Source: Archaeoglobi archaeon JdFR-42 (GTDB lineage Archaea > Halobacteriota > Archaeoglobi > Archaeoglobales > JdFR-42). Taken from it: a stretch of 64,000 bases of DNA. The notes under the pieces were generated by a model. That model saw nothing but the letters and a program-made list of their open reading frames with translations, had not been told where the DNA came from and ran no database searches. The stretch spans positions 18,805 through 82,804 of the forward strand of contig MTND01000009.1 of assembly GCA_002010305.1 (NCBI GenBank), written 5' to 3'. A program made the translations under genes and the position numbers. Positions 1,176 to 64,000 of the stretch are shown here, one piece after another (position 1 is the first letter of the stretch; each line of letters opens with the position of its first letter).

Positions 1176-1502
1176 TCAGCCCTTCTGCTTTTTTTTCCCA
1201 ATTATTCCATTTACAAAATCCTCTATCTCAGATATTTTAGAATTTACAATCTTTTTAACGTTGGTCTGACCTTCAGTAAATCCAATAGCAGCACCCACAA
1301 TAAATAGAAAATCAATATCATCCAGCTGATATTTCTGTTTCAATGCTTCTAGATCCTTTACTCGACTTTCCGGAAGTCGATCAATCATCTTTTCAGAAGG
1401 CAGTTCTTTTTTGTAAAATATCTGATCTTCATTTAAACTCCATTTCTCCTTCATTTCATCGAAGGCATCCCATAGAAGGCTCTTTTTATCTGCCATTTCC
1501 AT
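1176..1502 (-). CDS. hypothetical protein
   Basis: ORF 1176..1532. GGTGGT (SD-like) sits just 5' of the ATG at 1502 (MEMADKK...). No motif recognised. Confidence 0.45.
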   Translation of the reverse strand: MEMADKKSLLWDAFDEMKEKWSLNEDQIFYKKELPSEKMIDRLPESRVKDLEALKQKYQLDDIDFLFIVGAAIGFTEGQTNVKKIVNSKISEIEDFVNGIIGKKKQKG

Positions 1503-1603
1503 ACAACCACCATCAATCCATACACATGACACAATTTGTATTTTTTGGTTAACTCAATTTGCACCATATTCTCTAAGTTCGCATCATTTTCTTATTTCAC
1601 TAT

Positions 1604-1643
1604 TGTAAATCTTTGATTTACATGTTGTTAACTGTCGTTAACA
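1604..1643. promoter_or_regulatory. composite double palindrome: TGTAAATCTTTGATTTACA + TGT + TGTTAACTGTCGTTAACA
   Basis: Read directly: an 8-bp inverted repeat with a 3-nt spacer, a 3-nt gap, then a 7-bp inverted repeat with a 4-nt spacer. It lies between the purC stop (1628-1630, overlapped) and the start of gene 1176..1502. Confidence 0.6.
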
Positions 1644-2686
1644 ATACCCTGAATGATTTCGAAATACTCTTCAATGACTTCTTTAAACCCTGGAACATCA
1701 AAAAATCTGATTCCTGTTAACTCGTTGGCCATGGATTGATATATACCAGCAACTACATTTTTCACTTCTTCTTCAAGGCAAGGGGGATTCGAGCATAGAG
1801 ATCTCCAGTCTCTTAACCCTTCGACTTCCAGCTTCTTTTTAGCCCTGCACACTTCCCTATACCATTCAGTATTTCTGTAAATATTTCTGAGAATTTCCTT
1901 GCTAACATGATGGCCATTATATGTGAACCGACATTCATCAAGAGTGCCCAAAGCATCCACCACCAGCAGCTCTCTCTCAGGGGTGAAGGCCAGTTCAATC
2001 TTCCCATCCTCGTTGAACAAACCTATCTTTTCCACTTTTTTTGAAATGCAATTATTTATCTTCAAAAGAACTGTCTTTATATTCTCAATCTCACCATCGG
2101 ATAACTTTGCAAGTTCTTTTACCTCCCTCCATGTAACATACCTATCCGTATCTTCCAATTTTGTACTCACATCCAGTATCGGCGTTTCAAGTCTTTCCCC
2201 TGGCTCTGGGATCTTTTTAAGGCCGAATTCCTTTATATCCACACCTTTCTCTATCCGTTGAAAAATGGAACTCCCTGCAGGGAGACCATTTCTATAGATG
2301 AATTCAAAAGGAATGAGGAAATTCACCATTTCTGGGAAGAAGACAGAATAATCATATTCAAGCCCTCTCGATGATGATTTCACCTCTGGATGGATCACTC
2401 GCACAAGATCGATTTCCATTACGTTTACCGGGTGTGACAACTCTCCGATATGAAAGACTTCTCCATCACATACCACGCCCCTGTAGTGGGTACGGACACC
2501 TTCTTTTTCCAGCTTTTCAAAAAACATCGCAGAAGTCAGGCATAACGCTGCACCTTTGCTCGGAATCTCATCAGGCATTGCCCCCCAGTCAAATACAGAA
2601 AAACGATCTGAGAAAATGAATCTGCCCACTCCCATCTCATATTTAGTTGGTTTCCTGACGATTTCCAGATCCTTTACACTACCCAT
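1628..2686 (-). CDS. purC: phosphoribosylaminoimidazole-succinocarboxamide (SAICAR) synthase, long form
   Basis: The ORF resembles the SAICAR synthase family (MGSVKDLEIV N-terminus, FSDRFSVFDWG, LVVDALGTLDECRF). The ATG at 2686 is preceded by GGGTGTGAT. The ORF-track start at 2695 is a GTG inside that SD. Confidence 0.75.
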   Translation of the reverse strand: MGSVKDLEIVRKPTKYEMGVGRFIFSDRFSVFDWGAMPDEIPSKGAALCLTSAMFFEKLEKEGVRTHYRGVVCDGEVFHIGELSHPVNVMEIDLVRVIHPEVKSSSRGLEYDYSVFFPEMVNFLIPFEFIYRNGLPAGSSIFQRIEKGVDIKEFGLKKIPEPGERLETPILDVSTKLEDTDRYVTWREVKELAKLSDGEIENIKTVLLKINNCISKKVEKIGLFNEDGKIELAFTPERELLVVDALGTLDECRFTYNGHHVSKEILRNIYRNTEWYREVCRAKKKLEVEGLRDWRSLCSNPPCLEEEVKNVVAGIYQSMANELTGIRFFDVPGFKEVIEEYFEIIQGIVNDS

Positions 2687-2762
2687 ACATATCACACCCT
2701 ATTTTTACATTGGATACGTGTAAGCCAGAAGGTATATAATAATTAAGGACCTACCAGCAATC

Positions 2763-3050
2763 ATGGAATTCATCCGGGTTGATGGGAGTAATAATCAGCA
2801 TTCTGTAAGAATGTATGCATTAAGCACCTGTGTCTGGTGTAAAAAAACCAAGAAGCTTTTAAACGATAATGATATAACATATGAATATATAGATGTGGAC
2901 CTTCTGGATGAGATGGAACGTCAGCAGGCCACAGATGAAATGATTAAATTAGGAAGTATGGCGTTCCCCACACTCATCATTGATGGAGAGGTTATAACAG
3001 GTTTTGATCAGCAGAAAATACGAAAATCCCTTGATCTACCTAATGGATAA
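2763..3050 (+). CDS. glutaredoxin-like small redox protein
   Basis: 95 aa with a CVWC (CxxC) motif after a beta-strand and a thioredoxin-fold pattern (YALSTCVWCKKTKKLL ... FPTLIIDGE). Confidence 0.75.
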   Translation: MEFIRVDGSNNQHSVRMYALSTCVWCKKTKKLLNDNDITYEYIDVDLLDEMERQQATDEMIKLGSMAFPTLIIDGEVITGFDQQKIRKSLDLPNG

Positions 3051-3446
3051 TTTCATTCGACCGTTTCTGGTAATATACATTCTTATTGACCGTGTGAGGA
3101 CTCTGTTTCTGATAGCTCCTTCTAGCTCATTGAGGACCATGGAAACAATCTCAACGCTGGTGAGGGGGATTTTAACCTTTTTCATATCTCCTCTCTCATA
3201 TACCATTCGAGGTATGTCAAACACATCTGTGCCTGCAGGTATATCTATACTCATTACTGCACTGATCTGTTCCCAGATTTGAATGGTTTTATAGGATTTC
3301 TCAATATTCTTTCTGGCTCTTTTTTCGAGAATAGATACATTGGATTTTGTTGTCCCTAGAACAGATGCAATCTCCTCTAGGGTCATATGTCTGGCCCTCA
3401 TTTCCAAAACCTTGATCTGCAGCTCTGTTAAAAATGACTCTCCCAT
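3036..3446 (-). CDS. tfx: Tfx-family DNA-binding protein
   Basis: N-terminal FLTELQIKVLEMRARHMTLEEIASVLGTTKSNVSILEKRARKNIEK, a LuxR/sigma-70 region-4-like HTH typical of archaeal Tfx. The 3' end overlaps the convergent glutaredoxin-like gene by 15 nt. Confidence 0.75.
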   Translation of the reverse strand: MGESFLTELQIKVLEMRARHMTLEEIASVLGTTKSNVSILEKRARKNIEKSYKTIQIWEQISAVMSIDIPAGTDVFDIPRMVYERGDMKKVKIPLTSVEIVSMVLNELEGAIRNRVLTRSIRMYITRNGRMKLSIR

Positions 3447-4747: not shown

Positions 4748-5145
4748 AAGTTTCCGTAAGGGTAGAGACAAAAATTTATCCCACTGAAGAAGAAAATATA
4801 GTTATCCACGCAATAAAACAGCTTTTTCCTGAATCTACCATAAAAATAAAAAGAGATATGGTAGTCGGTGAAGTCCACGATCTCAAACATTTCAAAGAAC
4901 TTCTGAACAAACAGAAGATTCTCGATGCCGCTAGATCTGAACTCCTAAAAGGGGTTAAAAATGGACATACGGTGATATATCTTAACAAACAGACTGCTGT
5001 TATAGGAAAAGTCAATTTTACTGATGAAGATGCGTTGTTATCCCCAATCAGGCTTGAACTTAAGTCAGATGACCTTCGGACAGTAATTGACTTTCTTGCC
5101 CCTCCCACTAAAAATGGGAAGCCTCTTGTTGAGGTGGATAAGTGA
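4744..5145 (+). CDS. UPF0201-family protein (putative RNA-binding)
   Basis: VRVETKIYPTEEENIVIHAIKQLFP N-terminus, characteristic of UPF0201. Start overlaps the upstream stop (ATGA). Confidence 0.6.
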   Translation: MKVSVRVETKIYPTEEENIVIHAIKQLFPESTIKIKRDMVVGEVHDLKHFKELLNKQKILDAARSELLKGVKNGHTVIYLNKQTAVIGKVNFTDEDALLSPIRLELKSDDLRTVIDFLAPPTKNGKPLVEVDK

Positions 5146-15188: not shown

Positions 15189-15395
15189 TTATCCAGCTTC
15201 TTTTTTCCCTTCTTCTGTAAGGGTCCATTTACCTTTTTCTGGAGACTCCAGCAATCCTTTTTTCCTAAGAGGAGCAACTCTGCAAGAGATCTTGGAGGTT
15301 TTCACTCCAATTTTTTCTGCAATCTCTTTAGTGGATGCTGGTCTCCCGATCTCCTTTAAGGCCTTCAATATTTCCTTATTCAGATCCTGTGTCAT
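15189..15395 (-). CDS. small winged-helix DNA-binding protein
   Basis: 68 aa. ILKALKEIGRPASTKEIAEKIGVKTSKISCRVAPLRKKGLLE fits a wHTH pattern. GGTGGT SD lies 4 nt upstream. Confidence 0.6.
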   Translation of the reverse strand: MTQDLNKEILKALKEIGRPASTKEIAEKIGVKTSKISCRVAPLRKKGLLESPEKGKWTLTEEGKKEAG

Positions 15396-15424
15396 ACTAC
15401 CACCGGTGTTAATTTATACTTTAT

Positions 15425-15464
15425 TGTAAAGCTTTGCTTTACAATTTGTTAATTTACATTAACA
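15425..15464. promoter_or_regulatory. composite double palindrome: TGTAAAGCTTTGCTTTACA + ATT + TGTTAATTTACATTAACA
   Basis: Read directly. Same 19 + 3 + 18 nt architecture as 1604..1643. It lies 30-70 nt upstream of the wHTH gene start (15395). Confidence 0.65.
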
Positions 15465-15500
15465 ATATCATAAAAATACTTTTCGATTATAAGGTATAGT

Positions 15501-16109
15501 TTATACATCAGAACTTTTATCTTCCAAACTTCTATATGTATCCACTGCTCCTTTAAATCTGTTAAGGGTCTTTCTAAGGCTCTTGAACCCTTCTTCATCA
15601 TCCCTCACACCTTGAAGGGTGTCCTTTGACCAGAAAGTAGCACCGAGATTAGCCCCAAAAGCTCCTCCTCCTACGAAAACAACACCATTGATGGTATAGA
15701 AAGTGACTATCTGGAGGATGGCCAGTTCCTGGCCCCCAATTCGATCTCCTCCAACAGCTATGGCCATACCAGCTTTACCGGCGAACACATCTGGATTAAC
15801 AGCCACCATAGCTCTTGTTCGATCTATCACTGCTTTGAGCTGGGCACTGCAACCCCCATTATATACGGGTGTGGCCATTATAATTCCATCTGCTTTCTTA
15901 AAGAGACCATAAAGTTCCTCCATATCATCAGTAAATCTGCACTTTCCATGTTTTAAACAATAATCACAATGGATACAGTAATTGATTTCCTTTCCTCTTA
16001 CTGAAAACATAGATGTTGTATAACTATCTTCTTCCAGATGTTCAAGAGCCCTCTCTAGCACGTATTCAGTGGCACCCTTTCTGGGACTTCCACTTACACC
16101 CACTATCAT
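15501..16109 (-). CDS. iron-sulfur flavoprotein (NADPH-dependent FMN reductase fold, Isf-like)
   Basis: MIVGVSGSPRKG flavodoxin-like start and a compact Cys cluster CIHCDYCLKHGKC. Confidence 0.75.
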   Translation of the reverse strand: MIVGVSGSPRKGATEYVLERALEHLEEDSYTTSMFSVRGKEINYCIHCDYCLKHGKCRFTDDMEELYGLFKKADGIIMATPVYNGGCSAQLKAVIDRTRAMVAVNPDVFAGKAGMAIAVGGDRIGGQELAILQIVTFYTINGVVFVGGGAFGANLGATFWSKDTLQGVRDDEEGFKSLRKTLNRFKGAVDTYRSLEDKSSDV

Positions 16110-16157
16110 ATGAATAACTGTGGAATCATATGTATTAAAACCACCGTATGGAATAAT

Positions 16158-16176
16158 TGTAAAGCTTCGCTTTACA
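16158..16176. promoter_or_regulatory. 19-bp palindrome TGTAAAGCTTCGCTTTACA
   Basis: Perfect 8-bp inverted repeat with a 3-nt spacer, 49-67 nt upstream of the Isf-like start (16109). 17 nt are identical to the copy at 23389..23407. Confidence 0.6.
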
Positions 16177-16208
16177 AAGATAGAAGAAAGATTATCTCAA
16201 AATGACAT

Positions 16209-17066
16209 TCAGATCTCAGACTCTCTCATGGCAATGATATCATGAACAAATCTTGCTGCAAGGACTGAAGTTACACCCGTATCATAAGCTGGCACTACTT
16301 CTACCACATCCATCCCCAAAGATCTTTTGGCGATCTCTCTTAGGATTTCTCTCACATCCCATGGAGTCAAACCAAAAGGTTCTGGAGTTGAAACTCCAGG
16401 AGCATAAGAAGGGTCCAAGGCATCCATGTCCATAGAGATGTAAATCCTATCATAGCTTCTGAGAAGGTCAATCACCTCTCCACACCCAGTTTTCCGTATT
16501 CTAGTGCTAGTAAAATAGGTGATTCCATCCGTCCTATCGGCTAGAGCCTTTTCTTCTCTGGTCCCGCTTCTTACACCAACAAGAATGATCTCTTTGATTT
16601 TCCCATTCTCCATCATATCGAGAAGTCGTTTAGTGACACAAGCATGGCTGAATCTGGTTCCATCAAATTCATTTCTGAGATCGAAGTGAGCATCGAAAAT
16701 TAACACACTTGCATTATTTAACTTCCCAGTGGTCCCTATGGAGATGCTGTGATCTCCTCCAAGGACAATGGGAAATTTTTCCTCATTCAACCACTTTAAT
16801 ATAACATCACTCAAATGAGAAAGAATATTTTTTAGAGATCCTTCAACGGCTAGGTCTCCACAATCATGTATAGGTACTTCCGACAAACTCAGCTCAAACT
16901 CAAGTGAATAACTTTCAAGGTTCCAACTGGCTTCTCTGATTCTGGAGGGGGCAAATCGTGAACCCGGCCTGAAGGACTGAGTTATATCAACGGGAACTCC
17001 CATTACAACATATCGAGCTTCTGAAAAAGATGATGTTGCATCAGCAAATTCAGTCCCGATATACAT
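16209..17066 (-). CDS. speB: agmatinase (ureohydrolase family)
   Basis: GGDHSIS, DAHFD and SMDMDALDP Mn-binding motifs. Located next to aIF5A. Confidence 0.85.
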   Translation of the reverse strand: MYIGTEFADATSSFSEARYVVMGVPVDITQSFRPGSRFAPSRIREASWNLESYSLEFELSLSEVPIHDCGDLAVEGSLKNILSHLSDVILKWLNEEKFPIVLGGDHSISIGTTGKLNNASVLIFDAHFDLRNEFDGTRFSHACVTKRLLDMMENGKIKEIILVGVRSGTREEKALADRTDGITYFTSTRIRKTGCGEVIDLLRSYDRIYISMDMDALDPSYAPGVSTPEPFGLTPWDVREILREIAKRSLGMDVVEVVPAYDTGVTSVLAARFVHDIIAMRESEI

Positions 17067-17069
17067 GAC

Positions 17070-17453
17070 TTACCTGGGAATCAGTTTTCTTCTACCCATA
17101 CTCTCAATGTAGACGACTTCTTCTCCTATAGCTACTTTCTCTTTCATCTCGTCTGGAATTGTCAGCTCGAAGGTACTGTAATCCCCCAAATCCATAAGCT
17201 GAGCCACATCTCCAGAAATCGATATCACCTGAGCAGTTTTCCTTTCTACAATCGGTACATATATCTTTGCAGTAACAGGTTCTATCAAAGATCTTTTCTG
17301 ACCATCGAAGATTCCAACCGCATCAATTCTGGCTTTTGCTGAGCCATGTTTCCCAGGTTTTGAAACAGAAATACTGATTATGGTACACGGTTCGTCTCCA
17401 ACCAGCACATACCTTCCCTCTTTAAGATTCCTAACTTCTGTTTGTTCTTTCAT
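17070..17453 (-). CDS. eif5a: translation initiation factor 5A
   Basis: The SKPGKHGSAKARI hypusine loop. The start at 17453 gives a typical ~127-aa protein. The ORF-track start at 17504 is also possible. Confidence 0.9.
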   Translation of the reverse strand: MKEQTEVRNLKEGRYVLVGDEPCTIISISVSKPGKHGSAKARIDAVGIFDGQKRSLIEPVTAKIYVPIVERKTAQVISISGDVAQLMDLGDYSTFELTIPDEMKEKVAIGEEVVYIESMGRRKLIPR

Positions 17454-17576
17454 GGTCTCGTCCAAACAGTTGGTGACTGGTAATTTAAAATTTTCGATTA
17501 CCATGCAGAAAACAATGCCAGTAAACCATTCTGAATGGATATGGAAATAGATAACTATTGAGGACTTAAAACAACA

Positions 17577-18770
17577 CTATTCTTTTTCCCTTACTTTTTC
17601 TGCAAAACTCTTTCCAAACTCAATACATTGCTGTATCTCGTCTTCTGTAGGAGTATACCTGAATATGAGCCCTGAATCAACTACCTCTATACCCCCCTCT
17701 CTTAACATTTCTTCAGCTTTTTTTACTCCCTCTCCACTCCATCCGTATGAGCCAAACACAGATGCTATTTTGTTAATAGGCTTAAGCCCCTTCATGTACG
17801 TCAAAAATCCCGCCACACTAGGATACAACTCCCGGTTCAAGGTAGGAGTACCTACAAGAATGCCTTTAGCCAGCATTATTTCCTTCATAATCCAGCTCCA
17901 GTCAGAATGTTTGAGGAGATATATCTCGTAATCCATTTTTTCTTCCTCGAGACCTTTCGCTATAGCCCACGCCATTTTTTCTGTACTTTCCCACATAGTA
18001 TCATAAACTATAATTACCTTATCTGCTGCCATTCCACTGCTCCATTTCCCATATAAATCCAAGATTTTTTCTACACCATTTCTCCATATCAGTCCGTGGC
18101 TGGGAGCTATCATTTTAATGGATATGTTCTGCTCTTTCAAATATTTCAGGACTTTCTGGACTTGTTTCGAATACAGCATGATTATGTTGGCATAATACTT
18201 GGCAGCTTCATCATAGGGATCTACGAAGCTAATTTCATCTGCAAATCTTTCCGAAGAAGCGATATGCTGGCCGAATCCGTCGTTGGGAAACAGAATTTCA
18301 TCCTCAACTAGATACGTGAACATGGTATCAGGCCAGTGAACCATGGGCGTTTCAATAAATTTGAAGGTTTTATTCCCGATTGAGAGCTCATCCCCAGTTT
18401 TTACTACATTGATGCTCCATTCATCACTGTAGATTCTCTCAATAACATCTCTTGCTCTTTTTGTGCAAAAGATTTCCCCATCTACTCTTTCCATCAAATA
18501 AGGGAGAGAGCTTGAATGATCATACTCTATATGATTCACAATCACATAATCTATTTTATCAAAATCTGTGACACTCTCTATCCTTCTGAGATACACATCC
18601 TTGAATTTCCAGTAAACTGTATCTATCAGGGCTGTTTTTTTGTCACTGACTAAATATGCATTATAGGTTGTTCCATAGGGGGTGTTGTAGCCATGAAAAT
18701 CCCTAACATTCCAATCTACAGTTCCAACCCAGTATACATTATCCGTCAGATTTATCAGTTTCATATCCAT
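17577..18770 (-). CDS. fprA: flavodiiron protein (FprA / rubredoxin:oxygen oxidoreductase family)
   Basis: N-terminal metallo-beta-lactamase-like domain (NHIEYDHSS, HWPDTMF) plus a C-terminal flavodoxin domain (IIVYDTMWESTEKMA, GSYGWSGEG). Confidence 0.85.
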   Translation of the reverse strand: MDMKLINLTDNVYWVGTVDWNVRDFHGYNTPYGTTYNAYLVSDKKTALIDTVYWKFKDVYLRRIESVTDFDKIDYVIVNHIEYDHSSSLPYLMERVDGEIFCTKRARDVIERIYSDEWSINVVKTGDELSIGNKTFKFIETPMVHWPDTMFTYLVEDEILFPNDGFGQHIASSERFADEISFVDPYDEAAKYYANIIMLYSKQVQKVLKYLKEQNISIKMIAPSHGLIWRNGVEKILDLYGKWSSGMAADKVIIVYDTMWESTEKMAWAIAKGLEEEKMDYEIYLLKHSDWSWIMKEIMLAKGILVGTPTLNRELYPSVAGFLTYMKGLKPINKIASVFGSYGWSGEGVKKAEEMLREGGIEVVDSGLIFRYTPTEDEIQQCIEFGKSFAEKVREKE

Positions 18771-18784
18771 CCCCTTCTAGACAG

Positions 18785-19291
18785 CTATTGTGAGACTTCA
18801 AGAGAGAACTCAGGAATATCAAACCAGAATCCGGTATTTCGAATATAATCAAGCTCTGATTGGATAAGAAGGTAATGAGAGAGTTCCATCTCTCCAAGCT
18901 TTTCCAGAATTTTTCTAGCAACAGGGTCTTTAACTTTTTCCTTTTGTTCCCTGTAAAACCTCATAGACCGTTCTTCCTGCTCAAGAGCCATCTCAAGGGC
19001 ATCAATCTCTTGCATACCAGATTTTCCTTTCTTTTTCTGAATTGAATCGAGCACTGGTATCAGCTTTTCTACCTCAGATTCGGGTATATCTACTTTCTCC
19101 CATCCCTTTTTCTCCCTGATATTATTCAGTTCTTTTTCAAGAATTTCCATATGAGCAAATTCATCTTTTGCGAGAGAGATAAACATATTTTTCCCAGTGA
19201 TATCTCTGGATTTTCTTGCAAATTCCAGATAACTCTTCAACCCGGCCTTCTCCACTTTAATGGCAAATTCAAGGGCCTCAACATCATCCAT
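18785..19291 (-). CDS. rubrerythrin-family diiron protein without a rubredoxin domain
   Basis: Four-helix-bundle pattern with two ExxH motifs (EFAHMEIL, EMELSHYLL) and paired Glu (EKAGLKSY, EQEERSMRFY). Confidence 0.7.
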   Translation of the reverse strand: MDDVEALEFAIKVEKAGLKSYLEFARKSRDITGKNMFISLAKDEFAHMEILEKELNNIREKKGWEKVDIPESEVEKLIPVLDSIQKKKGKSGMQEIDALEMALEQEERSMRFYREQKEKVKDPVARKILEKLGEMELSHYLLIQSELDYIRNTGFWFDIPEFSLEVSQ

Positions 19292-19327
19292 AGCAATCCC
19301 TTCATTTATTCCTTATTAAACTTCGTA

Positions 19328-19492
19328 TTAGATTTTCTCAAAATCTTCCTTTGAAGCTCCACATACCGGACAAACCCAGTCTTCTGGGAGTTCCTCCCAT
19401 TTGGTCCCGGCAGGTATATCATTCTCCTGATCTCCTTCTGCTTCATCATATATATACCCACATACCGTACATTGATACCTTGCCATTTTCAT
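19328..19492 (-). CDS. rub: rubredoxin
   Basis: Not in the ORF track (54 aa). Hand translation gives [54 protein letters not shown], with CxxCG ... CPxCG motifs. The start ATG overlaps the upstream stop (ATGA at 19489-19492). Confidence 0.85.
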
Positions 19493-19905
19493 CCCTCCAG
19501 TAACGCGCTTAATTCAGCATCATGCTTTTCTTCTTCAGATAAAATCCCTTCAAGGAGATTTTTTGTCACCACATCCCCCACATCTTCAGCCAGTTTTATA
19601 TGATTTCTGTATATATTAATGGCACCCCTTTCAGCATCGAGATCATCCTTTATCATTTCCTTAAGGGTCCCACCAACTTGGATTTCAGCCGCTTCACTGA
19701 CTGGAGAGCCACCTAGGTATCGGATTCGCTCCGCCAGTTGCTCTGCATGCATCATTTCCTGAATGGCAAATTTCCTAAAAAGTCCACTTACATCCAAGCC
19801 CCCAATGCCGATAGCCATCACACTGTGCCACATGTATTGCACAATGGATGCGAGTTCAAGTGAAAGATCCCTGTTCAGGGCCTCAATCAGCTCTTCTTTC
19901 CCCAA
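19489..19905 (-). CDS. ferritin-like / Dps-like diiron protein
   Basis: 138 aa. [24 protein letters not shown] and EEEKHDAEL fit ferritin-like ligand spacing. Confidence 0.65.
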
Positions 19906-19914
19906 AAAGATCCC

Positions 19915-20289
19915 TCACTCCACTCTTATTGATTTCGTCCCTTCCCAGACACCATGGAGATTGCATCTGGCAAGAGCTCTGAGAGGGAAATCATCATGAG
20001 GGTGATTAAGAGTGATCCGGATTACAAGCTTTGGATCGGAGAAAACCGGCGTTAAATCAAGTCTAACCAAGAAAGTGTCTCCATGCCACAGTTCAATCCA
20101 TTGAAAATGATGACCAGCTTCATTGGGATGGGCGAGTAATTTTCCCACCTCTACTTCAACTTCAAACGATTCTCCAGCTTTAACAGCATCTGGAGCTTCT
20201 ATAACAGGAGTGTGCTTTTTCTCGAGATCTGACATTTCTTTAGATTGGGCTTTTTTTATCCCACAAAACAGGTCCTCTTCACAACCCAT
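19915..20289 (-). CDS. sor: superoxide reductase (1Fe-SOR, neelaredoxin type)
   Basis: EKKHTPVIEAP, HPNEAGHHFQWIEL and CNLHGVW give the complete His4-Cys plus Glu ligand set. Confidence 0.85.
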   Translation of the reverse strand: MGCEEDLFCGIKKAQSKEMSDLEKKHTPVIEAPDAVKAGESFEVEVEVGKLLAHPNEAGHHFQWIELWHGDTFLVRLDLTPVFSDPKLVIRITLNHPHDDFPLRALARCNLHGVWEGTKSIRVE

Positions 20290-20808: not shown

Positions 20809-21240
20809 ATGGCTTATGTCGACTCAAAAAATATGAAGATTCTTGAAATACTGCATAAAGATGCTCGAACTCCCAATACCGAGATAGCGAGAGAGATTGG
20901 TATCAGCGAGGCTGCTGTCAGAAAGAGGATCAAAAAACTAGAAGCTCAGGGCATTATAACACGATATACTATCGAAGTGAATCCAGAAAAGATTGGATTC
21001 AGCAGTATCTCCCTTACAGGAATAGATACCGAACCAGGGCTTTTTATGAGCATAGTACAGCAAATCCGTTCTATGGAAGAGGTGAGAGCTATGTATCTGA
21101 CTTCTGGAGACCATATGATAATGGCGGAGATTTGGGGTAAAAATGGTATGGACCTGAGTAAAATTCTCACAGAAAAAATTGGGAAGCTTAAAGGGGTCAA
21201 AAAGGTTTGTCCTGCAATAATACTAGAAAAAATTAAATAA
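20809..21240 (+). CDS. Lrp/AsnC family transcriptional regulator
   Basis: An N-terminal HTH (ILEILHKDARTPNTEIAREIGISEAAVRKRIKKLE) plus a RAM domain. Confidence 0.85.
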   Translation: MAYVDSKNMKILEILHKDARTPNTEIAREIGISEAAVRKRIKKLEAQGIITRYTIEVNPEKIGFSSISLTGIDTEPGLFMSIVQQIRSMEEVRAMYLTSGDHMIMAEIWGKNGMDLSKILTEKIGKLKGVKKVCPAIILEKIK

Positions 21241-22764: not shown

Positions 22765-23325
22765 TCATATCGCACCTGATCCATAATCCACAGATAGTTT
22801 TCTCCTTTCTATTCTCCCACATGAAGGACATATAAGCTTACTACCTTTCCGGGTCAATACAACTTTACAGTTGCGGCATATGGCGTGAATAACCCCGAGA
22901 TTATCCTCTGCTATGGTTAACTGAAGTGAATTTTCATCCAGAACCCTTGCCTTGATGACATCAAAGTGTTTGAGTTCATCATCAATCTGAGAAACATATT
23001 CTTTTTTTATGTTGGAGATGTGCAATGCTGCCAGCCCTATATTCGCAAGTTCCCTATCCTCTGATCCCTTTTTCCTTGCAATTTCAACTACTGCTATGGA
23101 ATTCTTGATATCCACTATTCTTCCTACAATCACATCTCCTTTTCTTAAAAGGGGCACCGGGTTGGTCTTTGGTTCTACAGAGACGGTCTTGTCCTTTCCT
23201 ACCGCAACCTCTCCCGCAACACATGCAAAAATCTTCCCACGCTCTTCATATACTCCATAACCCGGAATAAACTCTTCGGAGGTACCTATCAAGTCTCCAG
23301 GCAATACAATTTGACTTGCTTTCAT
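22765..23325 (-). CDS. csl4: exosome complex RNA-binding protein Csl4
   Basis: An S1-like domain plus a C-terminal zinc ribbon (CRNC ... CPSC). ATG at 23325; the ORF-track start at 23331 is TTG. Confidence 0.8.
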   Translation of the reverse strand: MKASQIVLPGDLIGTSEEFIPGYGVYEERGKIFACVAGEVAVGKDKTVSVEPKTNPVPLLRKGDVIVGRIVDIKNSIAVVEIARKKGSEDRELANIGLAALHISNIKKEYVSQIDDELKHFDVIKARVLDENSLQLTIAEDNLGVIHAICRNCKVVLTRKGSKLICPSCGRIERRKLSVDYGSGAI

Positions 23326-23367
23326 TTTCAAACCTTCTCAATTTCTTAATACACTAATTTACAATCT

Positions 23368-23407
23368 TGTCAATTCCTATTGACAATTTATAAAGCTTCG
23401 CTTTACA
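23368..23407. promoter_or_regulatory. composite double palindrome, inverted order: TGTCAATTCCTATTGACA + ATT + TATAAAGCTTCGCTTTACA
   Basis: Read directly. Same 18 + 3 + 19 nt architecture as the other copies. It overlaps the last 10 codons of the methyltransferase ORF and lies 43-82 nt upstream of the csl4 ATG. On the minus strand it carries GCTTTATAAA, a canonical TATA box. Confidence 0.6.
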
Positions 23408-23985
23408 ATCCTGTATACTTCCACATATATATACCCTACATCCTTGCGATGGAACTTATAAATTTTTTTCATAGGTATCTGAAAGTAGGCCACGTCTGTT
23501 ACCCTTGCTGGTTTCACATACTCCTTTATAAATTCTTCACTCCCCCTGCTGTGAATGCTGTATATTACCTTTCCAATCTCAAGGGCTTTATCCAAGAAGA
23601 TTCTGTCTGCATGTCGTTTTTGTATCCCAAAAGGTGGGTTCATCACCACTGTATCTGCGGTACCCTCAATATCTTCAACAGAACTGTGTATAAATTCAAT
23701 CTCAACTCCCAGTTTTTCAGCATTTCTTCTGGCTATCATAAGTGCTTTTGCATCCACATCAACTCCTATAACCTTCTTCGCACCTAGAAGTTTAGCCCCT
23801 ATGGCAAGGATACCATGTCCACATCCCAGATCATACACCACTCCTTTAAGATCTCCTTTGAGATAAGCTAGAAAGAGAAGCTCTGAAGCAAGAACTGGAG
23901 GGGTTGGATATTGTTCCAAAGATAGTTGAGGATTGTCGAACATTTCAAGACCTTCCAAAAGGATTTCCAGATCTTTCTTTTTCAT
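23377..23985 (-). CDS. SAM-dependent methyltransferase (METTL5-like)
   Basis: DLGCGHGILAI SAM-binding motif and the NPPFG catalytic motif. Confidence 0.75.
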   Translation of the reverse strand: MKKKDLEILLEGLEMFDNPQLSLEQYPTPPVLASELLFLAYLKGDLKGVVYDLGCGHGILAIGAKLLGAKKVIGVDVDAKALMIARRNAEKLGVEIEFIHSSVEDIEGTADTVVMNPPFGIQKRHADRIFLDKALEIGKVIYSIHSRGSEEFIKEYVKPARVTDVAYFQIPMKKIYKFHRKDVGYIYVEVYRIVKRSFINCQ

Positions 23986-39519: not shown

Positions 39520-40522
39520 ACCTCAATCTCCTATAATATGCCATAACTCTTTTCACGTGTTTCAACACTGTACCATCCTCAAAACCGTGTCTGCATGCTT
39601 CAATCCCATCTTCTATACTCTGAACTCTTTCAGCAGCATAAAGAGCCATTCCAGCGTTTATGAGTATAAAATCTCTGATTGGGCCCTCTTTATTGGAAAA
39701 AGCATCCAAGATGACTCTCTTATTATACCTACTGTCTCCTCCAGCAACCTCTGTGAGTTTTCTTCTCTCAAATCCAAAGTCTTCTGGCTGTATAGCATAG
39801 CTATCAACACAATTCCTCACTTCATACACCTGAGTTGCCTCTGCTATAGATACCTCATCCAGTCCAGAGCCATGTACTACAATACCCCTAATACCCAGCA
39901 TCAGCATCGATTCGGCTAGGATCTTGCATAGATGTGGGCTATAAACACCAATAAGCTGATAATCTGGTTCCACAGGATTGGATAATGGTCCCAGGATATT
40001 GAAGATAGTAGGTATCTTCAAAATTTTGCGTACTCCTGCAACTCTGGACATAGTTCGATGGATCAAAGGGGCGTACAGAAAAGAGAGACCAGCTTCCTGG
40101 AGAGTTAGATTCACCATCTCGGATGTCAGGGAAGGATGAATCCCTAATTCTTTCAGTAAATCTGCACTTCCACACCTTGATGTTATACCAGAGTTTCCAT
40201 GCTTGGCAACCGGAATAAAGCATGATAAAACGAGGGCTGATGCAGTGCTCACATTTATTGTATTCAGGCCATCTCCTCCTGTACCACATGTGTCCGCAAC
40301 ATGCATGGAGACCTCTATCTTTCCCGCCATATGCCTTAGTGCTCTTGCAAATCCTGTGACTTCTTCTGAAGTGATCTGTTTAGTCTGTAAGGCTGAAAGG
40401 ATGGCTGCCACTTCAACATCACTTGCATATACCATTTGCCTTAAAAGCTGGTCAGCTTCATCTACTCCCAGATCCTCTCCTGACATCAGTTTGTTTAATG
40501 CTAGAGAAATGCTTGAAACCAT
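39506..40522 (-). CDS. trpD: anthranilate phosphoribosyltransferase
   Basis: DTCGTGGDG and KHGN motifs. Confidence 0.9.
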   Translation of the reverse strand: MVSSISLALNKLMSGEDLGVDEADQLLRQMVYASDVEVAAILSALQTKQITSEEVTGFARALRHMAGKIEVSMHVADTCGTGGDGLNTINVSTASALVLSCFIPVAKHGNSGITSRCGSADLLKELGIHPSLTSEMVNLTLQEAGLSFLYAPLIHRTMSRVAGVRKILKIPTIFNILGPLSNPVEPDYQLIGVYSPHLCKILAESMLMLGIRGIVVHGSGLDEVSIAEATQVYEVRNCVDSYAIQPEDFGFERRKLTEVAGGDSRYNKRVILDAFSNKEGPIRDFILINAGMALYAAERVQSIEDGIEACRHGFEDGTVLKHVKRVMAYYRRLRCGRV

Positions 40523-41199
40523 TATATCGCCTCCACAAAAGATCTTACAGTCTTTTCCGGGTTACTAGCTAGCATAAAGGCTGTTCCAACAAGTATGCCA
40601 TCTACAACTTTCATGACCTCTCTAACATCGGATATAGAGCCTATTCCACTCTCACTGATAAGGATAGATGATTTTGGGACAAACTTCGAGAGTAAGAGAG
40701 TTCTAGAGATATCACCGTCATCCTTTTCCAGCTTTGTAATGTCCCTATTGTTTATGCCAATAAGCTTTGCATGATACTTTTTCGCAATATCAATATCATC
40801 CTTGCAACTGGTTTCTACCAGACCAGCAATACCATAATCGTGACAGTAATCAAGCATGATCCCCAGTCTGTCTTTTACCATGCCTGCGAGGAACAGGACA
40901 GCATCAACTCCACAATCCACACTGTCATCGATATCTTGTATATCCAGAATGAAGTCTTTTCTTAACACAGGTAAGTTGCTCACTGAACACAAATCTTTGA
41001 GAAGTCTCATATCCCCACCAAAAAATCTGCTCTCAGTTATATACGAAATTGCTCTTGCGCCTCCTTTTTCATATGCATCCAGAAGTGTAAAAGGGTCTCT
41101 CCCCCTCATCAGATCTCCATATTTTGGGGATCTCGGTTTGATCTCAGCAATCACCGCATTGGCGCCATTGTCTATACTGAGAGCTCGAATAAACCTCAT
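40522..41199 (-). CDS. trpC: indole-3-glycerol-phosphate synthase
   Basis: IAEIKPRSP and LRKDF motifs. First gene of the trp run. Confidence 0.85.
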   Translation of the reverse strand: MRFIRALSIDNGANAVIAEIKPRSPKYGDLMRGRDPFTLLDAYEKGGARAISYITESRFFGGDMRLLKDLCSVSNLPVLRKDFILDIQDIDDSVDCGVDAVLFLAGMVKDRLGIMLDYCHDYGIAGLVETSCKDDIDIAKKYHAKLIGINNRDITKLEKDDGDISRTLLLSKFVPKSSILISESGIGSISDVREVMKVVDGILVGTAFMLASNPEKTVRSFVEAI

Positions 41200-41297
41200 A
41201 CCACACCCTCTCTTATATTTTTACAATATATCCCGCAAAACAAGCAAACTGTCCAGAAATATCTTTTCAGAGATTTTCTCGAGAAATACTGACTGTA

Positions 41298-41316
41298 TGT
41301 AAATCCGGTATTTACA
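41298..41316. promoter_or_regulatory. 19-bp palindrome TGTAAATCCGGTATTTACA in the trp / ACT-regulator divergent region
   Basis: 7-bp inverted repeat with a 5-nt spacer and the same TGTAAA-N7-TTTACA geometry as the other copies, 99-117 nt upstream of the trpC ATG. A separate perfect 12-bp palindrome TTTCTCGAGAAA lies at 41275..41286. Confidence 0.5.
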
Positions 41317-41611
41317 GTTTCTTTCAAAAAACTGGATTTAAAGGCCGTATATAACTCTGAACCTAATCCTAAATAAAATAACTTTCTGAGATTATAAGGC
41401 CCTAACAGGCCAAACGCATTCACCTCTGGTATTACTTGGTATCACTGTAGCGATTCCTATCATCCATATCACTCGACAATCAACCACATATATGGTATTT
41501 AAATCTTTCTATTATGAATAAACTCAAAAATTGGTATTGAACTACTATAATGTGGTGTAAACCTATAATACAGGGGAAACCTTTAAAAGTTTCTTTATAA
41601 ATCTTCATTTA

Positions 41612-42109
41612 ATGTGGGATCGAATCAAGAGTAAATTTGATAAGTACCCTTCAAGGATGGAAGTAGCCAAAGAATTTCTGAGACTGGGCATTTCGGTCAG
41701 AGATGGAAAAGCCTGGTGTGGCAATATTGAATTAACACCGTCTAAAATAGCCAGAACCCTTGGAGTAGACAGAAAAGTAGTTCTTTCAACTATTCAGATT
41801 ATTGAACGTGATGAAGTCCTCAAAAAGGTATATTCTCTTATAAAACCCATCGCATATATTGGAGATGTGGCCCAACTTTTTGACTTTGGGGTACTGGAGA
41901 TATATGCAGAATCTGAAAAAAGCGGTATTGTTGGAAGTATTGCAGGGATACTTGGGAAAGAGGGTATATCCATTCGGTTTATAATAGCAGAAGACCCTGA
42001 GTTGAGTATTGACCCTAAACTCACCATTGTTACAGAAAAAAGAGTGCCGGGTCGAATTATAGACCAGTTACTAAAAGTCAATGGAGTGAAAAAAATTGTG
42101 GTTTCCTGA
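41612..42109 (+). CDS. ACT-domain putative regulator of amino-acid metabolism (N-terminal DNA-binding-like region + ACT)
   Basis: 165 aa. The N-terminal half is HTH-like (PSKIARTLGVDRKVVLSTIQ). The C-terminal half has an ACT pattern (LEIYAESEKSGIVGSIAGILGKEGISIR). It is divergent from the trp operon. Confidence 0.65.
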   Translation: MWDRIKSKFDKYPSRMEVAKEFLRLGISVRDGKAWCGNIELTPSKIARTLGVDRKVVLSTIQIIERDEVLKKVYSLIKPIAYIGDVAQLFDFGVLEIYAESEKSGIVGSIAGILGKEGISIRFIIAEDPELSIDPKLTIVTEKRVPGRIIDQLLKVNGVKKIVVS

Positions 42110-60457: not shown

Positions 60458-61885
60458 TCACCTCACGAGCAGCTTACCAGGATTCATGATATTGTTTGGA
60501 TCGAGCATATCCTTAACCTTCTTCAGCAACTCCACATATCCTGTATCAGCTCGCTTGTATATCTCTTCCTGGAATTCCAGCGGTGGTTTATAGGGTATTC
60601 CCCCCACATCCAGCGCCACTCTTAACGCTTCTACGATAGCATCTCTCGCATTCTTGATCTTCTCTGGGTCTCTTTTATCAAAAGGTGTCATTGCTCTGAG
60701 CATCCCGTAATGGGTCCCCCTATAAAGGGTAATTCTGACAGAAGGGGAAAGATTTCTCCGAATATATATTTCCTTCCATCTATTGTAGGCTTCAGGCCAT
60801 TTAGGAGCTGGAGTGAAGGTCCCTGGCCATGAAATTCCACCCCCTGCCGATTTGGCATAATTTTTGGTAGAGCCAACAATCTGACTTGGAAGCTGAGTCC
60901 TTGCCTTTTTTGCCTCTTCAGGATACTCATACTCCTTCACACTGCTTCCACTTTCCTGTTCTTTTTTAAGGGACATCTCCCACATTTCTCGTTTAGCTTC
61001 TAGCTCTTTTTCTGTAAACCCGGTTATTACACTGTAACTGTACCATTCAGGCTCATCATCCGGTTTAGGTTTATAAGGGTACGGAATAGGGATCTGAGCT
61101 AGCCACCAGCTCACTGCGGTCAAATCATCCGCTGCTTCATATCTACCCCATCGGATCATGTAATTTGTCATATCTTCAACGTTCTCAGCCGAGACTGTTA
61201 ACACATCACTGTAGTCTGGGATTCCTGATACAACAATACCCAGCTTTGTTACGATCCCTGTGGTACCGAGGGTTCCTATAAACAAGCCATCCAGTCTAGG
61301 AACTGGATATAACGAATGCCATGAACCTGTTATCCCTGCACTACCAAGTCTTACCAATTCTCCTGTGGGAAGAATAACCTCCATACTGGTTATCATCTGA
61401 CTGTTAAGGCCATATCTACCGGTAAGATGTCCAATTCCATGATTTATGGCACAAGCCAGTACAGATGCCGATGGTGGACCCACAGGCCATCCAAACCTTA
61501 AGCCCTTTTCATATAGAGCGTCGGCCAGCTGTGCATGGCTGACTCCTGGCTCAATCACCGCATACCTCATTTCTTCATTGATCTCCACAATTTTATTCAT
61601 TCTTTTTAAATCTAAAATTATACCCCCTTTTTCTGGAATGCACAGTCCCCCTATATTGGTCCCCCCTGTAAATGGGATCACCGGGACTTTCTCTTCGTTA
61701 GCCATTTTCATAATAGCCTGAATCTCTTCAACAGTTTCCGGTAGGGCAATGATGTCTGGCATTTTTGGATCCACAAATGACATATCATATGAATACGTGT
61801 ATCTGACGAACTCGTCGTCGGATACCCACTCATCCCCCAGAATGTCAACTAGCCTTCTGTAAACCCTCTTTTTATCCCAACTCAT
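60458..61885 (-). CDS. FAD-linked oxidase (GlcD / D-lactate dehydrogenase family)
   Basis: FAD-binding PCMH-type domain (PFTGGTNIGG). The ATG at 61885 is preceded by GGGTGAT; the ORF-track start at 61918 is a GTG. Confidence 0.8.
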   Translation of the reverse strand: MSWDKKRVYRRLVDILGDEWVSDDEFVRYTYSYDMSFVDPKMPDIIALPETVEEIQAIMKMANEEKVPVIPFTGGTNIGGLCIPEKGGIILDLKRMNKIVEINEEMRYAVIEPGVSHAQLADALYEKGLRFGWPVGPPSASVLACAINHGIGHLTGRYGLNSQMITSMEVILPTGELVRLGSAGITGSWHSLYPVPRLDGLFIGTLGTTGIVTKLGIVVSGIPDYSDVLTVSAENVEDMTNYMIRWGRYEAADDLTAVSWWLAQIPIPYPYKPKPDDEPEWYSYSVITGFTEKELEAKREMWEMSLKKEQESGSSVKEYEYPEEAKKARTQLPSQIVGSTKNYAKSAGGGISWPGTFTPAPKWPEAYNRWKEIYIRRNLSPSVRITLYRGTHYGMLRAMTPFDKRDPEKIKNARDAIVEALRVALDVGGIPYKPPLEFQEEIYKRADTGYVELLKKVKDMLDPNNIMNPGKLLVR

Positions 61886-63880: not shown

Positions 63881-64000
63881 TTTTTATGGATTATTTTGAT
63901 GGATGGGTATATGCAGAGCATATACACCAATTTCATAACTAAATCACTGTTTGTCAAATATCATGTTAAGAGGGGGCACATACATCCACACCAGAAGAAA

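Follow-up and report, generated by a model that had tools for sequence, protein, structure and literature searches.

In this study we analysed 64,000 nucleotides of the metagenome-assembled genome of the Archaeoglobi archaeon JdFR-42 (contig MTND01000009.1, positions 18,805 to 82,804 of the forward strand; hereafter the window, over whose whole length all positions are counted), where short palindromes of two related types, here called module A and module B, recur at the junctions of neighbouring genes. The sequence read comprised the window and 18.8 kb of flank, 82.8 kb altogether. The window holds seven such palindromes at four loci (a to d), and no additional copies were found in the added flank. 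The closest named relatives of the window proteins belong to Geoglobus and the Archaeoglobaceae, and the amino-acid composition suggests a host that grows at ~65 C. All results concern one species-level lineage and four loci, one of which (locus d) was compared across strains.

All four loci (4/4) are junctions of co-directional minus-strand genes, and copies between divergent or convergent genes were not found (n = 4 loci). At locus a a PurC-like gene lies upstream, the modules follow in the gene-strand order B-A, and downstream come a gene for a 108-aa protein (1176-1502, minus strand; without a match in Pfam or NCBIfam) and then truA. Locus b likewise has the order B-A, with an iron-sulfur flavoprotein gene upstream and, downstream, a gene for a 68-aa winged helix-turn-helix (wHTH) protein followed by one for an archaemetzincin. 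Locus c bears A alone, between an agmatinase gene upstream and an iron-sulfur flavoprotein gene downstream. At locus d the order is A-B; a METTL5-family methyltransferase gene lies upstream, and csl4 (exosome subunit) and then rpoL lie downstream. The genes downstream of the elements, that is csl4-rpoL, the iron-sulfur flavoprotein, the wHTH and the 108-aa protein, are functionally unrelated. Every copy sits within -30 to +36 nt of the stop codon of the upstream co-directional gene. A sequence-only reading of this DNA had placed all copies in short gaps upstream of minus-strand genes; the minus-strand junctions are borne out, but at loci a and d the modules overlap the ends of the upstream open reading frames (ORFs). 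At locus a the PurC-like gene ends inside B, which takes in its final 6 codons, stop included, and at locus d the final 10 codons and the stop of the METTL5-family gene lie under A and B. The C-terminal ~7-10 residues of the PurC-like protein do not align to its homologues, which might suggest an extension made by insertion here too, although the homologues themselves have unaligned tails of similar length.

Direct reading confirmed the palindrome sequences of that first description in their places. The palindromes are real but longer than the 19-mer and 18-mer described there, since A extends to up to 23 bp and B to 20 bp; of the five loci then listed, four (starting at 1602, 15423, 16156 and 23387) form one family, whereas the palindrome at 41298 stands apart and is treated separately below. 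On the gene strand A reads ATTGTAAAGC-RAA-GCTTTACAAT with 10-bp arms, which corresponds to (A)TTGTAAAGC-TTY-GCTTTACAA(T) on the plus strand. The copy at locus b is a perfect 23-mer, and those at loci c, d and a show 1, 2 and 4 differences from the consensus; at locus a the inner pair is T-A, versus G-C in the other copies. B has the form TTGTYAAY-N4-RTTRACAA, with 8-bp arms and a 4-nt loop, and abuts A at three of the four A loci. The ends TTGT...ACAA are common to both modules. The two-palindrome architecture with fixed spacing was likewise confirmed, with 21.5 bp from centre to centre at each of the three composite loci. At loci a and b the upstream module is B, at locus d it is A; despite this swap, all six copies of A have RAA as their gene-strand loop. 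The modules have a G+C content of 15-33% in the window copies and 42% in one copy of the related strain L136. When one mismatch was allowed, TGTAAA-N7-TTTACA gave 6 matches against 0.31 expected (~20-fold), a number which none of 100 dinucleotide shuffles reached. The sixth of these, at 61013, lies inside an ORF and fits the loose pattern only. TGTYAA-N6-TTRACA was found 3 times against 0.92 expected, always as an exact match; chance is an inadequate explanation for these 18-mers, because each of them sits 3 nt from a 19-mer.

At locus d the number of modules differs between strains. In L136, whose METTL5 protein is 97% identical and whose flanks are nearly identical to those of the window, the METTL5-csl4 junction has the structure A-B-A'-B', whereas the window bears A-B followed by one arm, the first, of A'. 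When the two are aligned, a gap of exactly 43 bp appears, equal to one A-B unit, and the spacer between the genes measures 51 nt in the window and 115 nt in L136. B' of L136 has diverged to TTGTCAG-TAGAG-CTGACAA, with arms that still match each other. The second A, a remnant in the window, is complete in L136, where it is the first A that has decayed; in the window the sole A is intact. In two more distant genomes (L137 and L138, METTL5 66-67% identical) 3-4 nt separate the METTL5 stop codon from the csl4 ATG and no element is present, and because of this distance the whole METTL5-csl4 spacer is an addition in the present lineage. Locus d hence combines a copy-number polymorphism (one versus two units) with an empty site at the orthologous junction. 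Judged from the sequence, the gain of the spacer appears to have separated METTL5 from csl4, with which it had been coupled. The METTL5 ORF of the window continues across A to a stop codon in B and so acquires an element-encoded C-terminal extension of 7 residues, RSFINCQ. In L136 a single C-to-T change beside the A loop creates an earlier TGA at the usual position, giving 195 aa (23377-23985 in the window versus 27-614 in L136).

Table 1. Palindromic modules, remnants and associated genes, with positions counted over the whole window and module sequences given on the gene strand.
Feature	Position	Strand	Description
A, locus a	1602..1624	-	CATGTAAATC-AAA-GATTTACAAT, 8-bp arms
B, locus a	1625..1644	-	TTGTTAAC-GACA-GTTAACAA
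PurC-like ORF	1628-2695	-	upstream of locus a, end overlapped by B
Half-B remnant (possible), locus b	15406..15419	-	far side of A; tentative
A, locus b	15423..15445	-	ATTGTAAAGC-AAA-GCTTTACAAT, perfect 23-bp palindrome
B, locus b	15446..15465	-	TTGTTAAT-GTAA-ATTAACAA, gene-strand upstream of A
68-aa wHTH protein	15189..15395	-	downstream gene of locus b; candidate DNA-binding protein
A, locus c	16156..16178	-	TTTGTAAAGC-GAA-GCTTTACAAT, no B
Remnant of second A, locus d	23358..23366	-	left arm (GATTGTAAA), at the edge of the 43-bp unit deletion
B, locus d	23367..23386	-	TTGTCAAT-AGGA-ATTGACAA, downstream of A, holds the METTL5 stop
A, locus d	23387..23409	-	ATTGTAAAGC-GAA-GCTTTATAAA, within the last 10 codons of the METTL5-family gene
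csl4	22765..23325	-	exosome subunit, downstream gene of locus d; rpoL next
Tfx	3036-3446		candidate DNA-binding protein
Lrp/AsnC	20809-21240		candidate DNA-binding protein
8-3-8 palindrome	41298..41316	.	TGTAAATC-CGG-TATTTACA, outside the A/B family
TrpY family	41612-42109		candidate DNA-binding protein

Two further features lie beside A. The possible half-B remnant at locus b equals the plus-strand start of the B of that locus at 12 of 14 positions, the 9-mer TGTTAATTT included. At locus c a 20-nt imperfect palindrome, AGATA-N10-TATCT (16178..16197, minus strand), abuts A in the place of B; it has the length of B and an unrelated sequence, and may be due to chance or represent a replaced module.

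Both modules would be able to form hairpins, with arms of 7-10 bp and fold z-scores of -4 to -6 against shuffles. The arms of B are paired in 100% of cells and show double changes at two pairs (T-A/C-G and A-T/G-C), to which direct reading adds a third, C-G/T-A at position 8. For A the paired fraction is 94%; there is one double change, and at two positions the gene strand has G.U where the other strand has A.C. The A of locus d carries one such G.U-type position, which gives the proximal arm TTTATAAA. On the gene strand every copy has a purine-rich loop (RAA, GACA, GUAA, AGGA and UAGAG), and locus d folds better on that strand (-13.7 vs -10.6 kcal/mol). Within each module type the stem sequence is far stricter than pairing alone requires. 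The symmetric changes of the arms point to pairing, or else to some process by which perfect palindromes arise, as far as few copies and weak statistics allow.

The sequence-only reading had also noted a resemblance of the gene-proximal half of the palindrome to an archaeal promoter, i.e. the transcription factor B recognition element (BRE) and TATA box. Twelve other promoters of the contig follow the pattern RAAANN-TTTAWAWA, 27-58 nt upstream of the ATG, and the proximal half of A reads GC-RAA-GC-TTTAYAAT on the gene strand. In a position weight matrix (PWM) built from these 12 promoters, which themselves score 5.3-15.6 bits, this half reaches 7.1 bits at locus b, 6.3 bits at locus d and 3.7 bits at locus c. 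Those values belong to the top 0.15-1% of positions and to the low end of real promoters, and the opposite strand of A mostly scores lower. The resemblance is thus real at loci b, c and d but only weak to moderate; at locus a the top-scoring position falls in another register, at the B/A junction. The RAA loop would form the purine-rich, BRE-like part and does so in one direction only, toward the downstream gene in all six copies. From the end of A to the start codon there are 27-63 nt at loci b, c and d (27 nt before the wHTH gene at b, 46 nt before the iron-sulfur flavoprotein gene at c) and ~100 nt at locus a.

Our favoured reading, in which our confidence falls slightly short of even, is that what the four loci share is a modular palindromic repeat, lineage-specific and similar to REP (repetitive extragenic palindromic) sequences and bacterial interspersed mosaic elements (BIMEs) of bacteria, and that it may supply or overlap promoters. 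A REP-like tandem-hairpin element had been named before as the second choice, and it fits the comparative data better than the first. We prefer a repeat to a conserved operator because of the unit-sized difference between strains, the empty site, the symmetric and near-perfect arms, the unrelated neighbouring genes and the restriction to one lineage. Such a repeat would be built of two related hairpin-capable modules, A with arms of 8-10 bp and a 3-nt loop and B with arms of 7-8 bp and a 4-5 nt loop, which would alternate head to tail (A-B-A-B) with linkers of 1-2 nt and in one polarity relative to the co-directional genes. It would be inserted into very short junctions or onto the 3' ends of genes, and whole A+B units (~43 bp) would be gained and lost. 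Promoter function would likely be a side-effect and possibly the reason for retention, the proximal arm and purine loop of A acting as BRE/TATA toward the downstream gene. An inserted unit could in this way uncouple METTL5 from csl4 and give csl4 a promoter of its own. The mechanism of insertion and mobility, the hairpins in vivo and the promoter activity are what we infer from this picture. A bolder version would see in it an archaeal equivalent of REP/BIME, working as a portable promoter: a ~43-bp two-hairpin unit would be spreading in one Archaeoglobi lineage, the oriented BRE/TATA of A would be splitting operons such as METTL5-csl4, and an unrecognised enzyme of the HUH type or another kind would perhaps mobilise it. 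This version seems to us improbable.

Several observations weigh against a repeat. To our knowledge REP-like families are not established and barely documented in Archaea, which gives the reading a low prior. Only 4 loci were found in 82.8 kb, all of them within 22 kb, and no transposase, REP-associated tyrosine transposase (RAYT) or IS200/IS605 gene is present among the annotated genes of the contig stretches examined, the window being partly annotated. Significant similarity beyond the palindromes was not found (flank alignments, p = 0.2-0.97). Target-site duplications are not consistent either, the flanks being TA/TA at loci a and b, GA/GA at d and T/T at c. The covariation statistics of the arms are weak, B being equalled by 22 of 500 shuffles and A by 79 of 500. 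The predicted stability of the AT-rich hairpins is only -2.7 to -4.3 kcal/mol per locus at ~65 C and falls to nil at 85 C. Successive REPs of a BIME alternate in orientation, whereas the modules here keep one polarity, and REPs typically have a GTAG/CGTC tag and a RAYT, whereas no tag was found here at either end. Finally, the outer TTGT...ACAA is invariant in 11 of 11 palindromes and the modules are phased by 21-22.5 bp, that is two helical turns; a cooperative DNA-binding protein would give the same pattern (PMC2995911). Two variants of the element were rejected. A longer element of the type of miniature inverted-repeat transposable elements was not supported by the flanks, where a 15/18 match between the tails of loci a and d is not significant (p = 0.2). 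A junction motif ACAA-N1-2-TTGT as an alternative register is unenriched, and locus c has A alone.

The invariant ends and the phasing lead to the alternative that we consider quite possible, although we lean against it: an array of operators to which a dimeric protein binds. In that case A and B would be two versions of one site, TTGT-N12/13-ACAA, occupied cooperatively on one face of the helix 21.5 bp apart, with A lying over BRE/TATA and the protein repressing or modulating the downstream gene. Invariant outer half-sites with variable inner positions fit such a site, as does the proximal arm of A, which is BRE/TATA-like and correctly oriented in six of six copies. At ~65 C, AT-rich palindromes are better suited to being bound by a protein than to forming stable hairpins, operators have the higher prior in archaea, and the one intact A that is kept upstream of csl4 both in the window and in L136 suggests selection. 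Two-turn phasing is known from cooperative archaeal regulators, and in clusters of Lrp-type sites the spacing is two or three helical turns, so that the sites share a face of the helix (PMC2995911). However, natural Lrp-type sites of 13-17 bp are degenerate with an AT-rich centre, unlike A and B (PMC2995911). The near-perfect arms vary symmetrically, which is unexpected of independent half-sites; B changes sides between loci a and b on the one hand and d on the other, and at locus a there are ~100 nt between A and the start codon. As far as a conserved operator and regulon of a dimeric regulator had been proposed by the sequence-only reading, the comparison spoke against it. Orthologous regions in relatives lack the motif, the would-be target genes are functionally incoherent, and the copy number shifts by a whole unit between near-identical strains.

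Among the candidate binders the wHTH protein had been proposed first, and loci b and c flank its gene, which would fit autoregulation together with control of a neighbour. Its orthologues in five genomes (66-78% identical) have other gene contexts and the motif upstream of none, and their recognition helix is invariant. Because of this invariance, they would be expected to keep similar sites if the wHTH protein bound A or B; as the cognate factor it is thus unsupported. The motif was absent from the DNA upstream of the wHTH orthologues of the five genomes, from the METTL5-csl4 junctions of L137 and L138, and from the vicinity of an iron-sulfur flavoprotein homologue (L140). The wHTH orthologues have other, mutually different palindromes at their TATA boxes. 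Over or beside the TATA box we noted TATTCTTC-T-GAAGAATA in L004 and L006 (4975-4991 and 1713-1729), and TGACA-N17-TGTCA and AACATTT-A-AAATGTT in L007 (~4950-4990) and L009 (~4950-4975), respectively. The repeat and operator readings are not mutually exclusive.

A role at the RNA level only, in which tandem hairpins of read-through transcripts (intercistronic or in the 3' untranslated region) would block 3'-5' decay or mark processing, appears rather unlikely to us. REP hairpins in bacterial operon mRNAs act in this way. The position of all copies just after or on the upstream stop codon would suit it, as would the purine-rich gene-strand loops, the better gene-strand fold of locus d, and the fact that the two non-Watson-Crick changes of A are G.U on the gene strand and A.C on the opposite one. 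On the other hand, the predicted stability at 65 C is marginal, no Rfam family matches, and the stems are conserved beyond the needs of pairing. At locus b the palindromes are preceded by a T5 tract, the signal at which archaeal transcription usually terminates, which puts them past the likely 3' end. Coincidence among AT-rich intergenic sequences can hardly be entertained: intergenic DNA is AT-rich and the fifth and sixth loose 19-mer matches probably lie outside the family, but the shuffles refute it, the 23-bp consensus occurs with 0-4 mismatches at four sites only, the module spacing is identical at three loci, and the same modules recur in a second strain.

Searches elsewhere recovered hardly any relatives of the modules. 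About 60 kb from six other Archaeoglobi genomes contained no TTGT...ACAA palindromes, and covariance models of A and B run over 175 kb returned only the known (training) copies and no diverged ones. The A-B composite was absent from viral contigs; a single match of the A 21-mer there was read as chance, and a viral origin is not indicated. In metagenome contigs, from a collection apparently without the source metagenome of the host, the A 21-mer TTGTAAAGCTTYGCTTTACAA had 6 matches, none on the contig of the host and one on a bacterial contig that the genome collection had shown as well. The matches listed for TGTAAAGCNNNGCTTTACA in the genome collection came from scattered bacteria, the host genome being outside those listed. 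Rfam and tRNA scans of the window returned nothing, and a literature search with the motif string returned primer sequences only. The same core, as (G/C)TGTAAAGC-NNN-GCTTTACA and usually followed by C, recurs in bacteria: many copies are present in two metagenome-assembled genomes (66-73% G+C) that bear the label uncultured Enterobacteriaceae, and five Rheinheimera genomes have one copy apiece. Its freely variable central triplet is the pattern expected of a true operator, and it is unrelated to the archaeal element. Other known classes were set aside as well: integron attC sites (there is no GTTRRRY core, the palindromes lack the length, and they are flanked by housekeeping genes in synteny), dif sites and origin-recognition boxes (neither copy number nor sequence fits), and C/D-box small RNAs (no boxes).

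The palindrome at 41298 had been counted among the five loci of the motif. Its flanks and centre differ from those of A, and a covariance model of A did not report it even at E<=10. It lies in the control region (41200-41611) shared by two divergent transcription units, 99 nt upstream of the start of trpC (IGPS; 40522-41199, starting at 41199), the first gene of the trp operon. The divergent gene encodes the ACT-domain protein, which belongs to the TrpY family (TrpY_fam, 184.8 bits against a cut-off of 180). Additional TGTAAA/TTTACA hexamers are found at 41221 and 41556. As in Methanothermobacter thermautotrophicus, a TrpY-family gene diverges from the trp operon with a palindrome between them; unlike the TRP box there, which reads TGTACA, the site here has the structure TGTAAATC-CGG-TATTTACA, and its sequence TGTAAATCCGGTATTTACA differs from the TRP-box sequence. 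The TrpY operators of Methanothermobacter sit in the shared trpY/trp control region, and the TrpY homologues of the Archaeoglobaceae are uncharacterised (PMC6737238). The site at 41298 is best treated as a candidate TrpY site and not as a member of the A/B family.

Some further features of the window lie near the subjects above. Loci b and c are situated at the end of an oxidative-stress cluster (15501-20289, minus strand) with genes for desulfoferrodoxin/SOR (19915-20289), a ferritin-like protein (19489-19905), rubrerythrin (18785-19291) and the flavodiiron protein FprA (17577-18770), followed by eIF5A, agmatinase and the iron-sulfur flavoprotein (15501-16109); the palindromes flank only this last gene. 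The Lrp/AsnC gene is divergent from the SOR gene. At 63907-63925 (11927-11945 in L135) there is an intergenic 8-3-8 hairpin, GTATATGC-AGA-GCATATAC, which follows two T-rich tracts and lies 27 nt past the end of an ABC-ATPase gene (stop codon). Its geometry and its GC-NNN-GC inner stem are those of A and its gene-strand loop consists of purines, but the arm sequence is unrelated to A.

In bacteria, short palindromic repeats of the dispersed kind have been studied in depth; they affect mRNA stability, supercoiling, genome plasticity and strain typing. If the family were confirmed across the whole genome, it would offer a compact case of a repeat that remodels operons, in which METTL5-csl4, a translationally coupled housekeeping pair, was split by one or two units. 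Should it indeed be a repeat, the family might distribute ready-made archaeal promoters. If it were an operator array instead, we would have a new motif and a small regulon beside an oxidative-stress cluster of an uncultured thermophile. In both cases the scope stays narrow, namely four loci of a single species-level lineage.

Among known systems, archaeal operator palindromes include the Lrp boxes (Ss-LrpB, FL11), the TrmB-family TGM, and the Archaeoglobus fulgidus MDR1 and HSR1 sites. The present modules share with them inverted repeats, a spacing by helical turns and a possible overlap with BRE/TATA, which is a mode of repression at such sites, but differ in being 19-23 bp long, near-perfect, with a GC-RAA-GC centre, and unconserved in relatives. 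The Correia elements of Neisseria are 100-155 bp long, have terminal inverted repeats of 26 bp and duplicate a TA target; they are intergenic and can bring a promoter and form a hairpin in read-through RNA. Like these, the element described here is a small non-coding intergenic repeat with a possible promoter and RNA hairpin; unlike them, it consists of ~43-bp units, with no demonstrable target duplication and no similarity beyond the palindromes. According to two studies, REP/BIME sequences are near-perfect palindromes of 20-40 bp, specific to a species or lineage, at co-directional junctions and 3' ends; two or more related types form regular clusters whose size varies between strains (PMC2817692, PMC3733652). 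Apart from the differences in polarity and tag given above, REPs are typically G+C-rich and exceed 100 copies per genome (>100), while the window copies are AT-rich, and the host here is archaeal. As in the REP/BIME sequences of Enterobacteria and Pseudomonas, however, short near-perfect palindromes of two related types lie with regular spacing at co-directional junctions and 3' ends, their sequence is specific to the lineage, and the size of the cluster varies from strain to strain.

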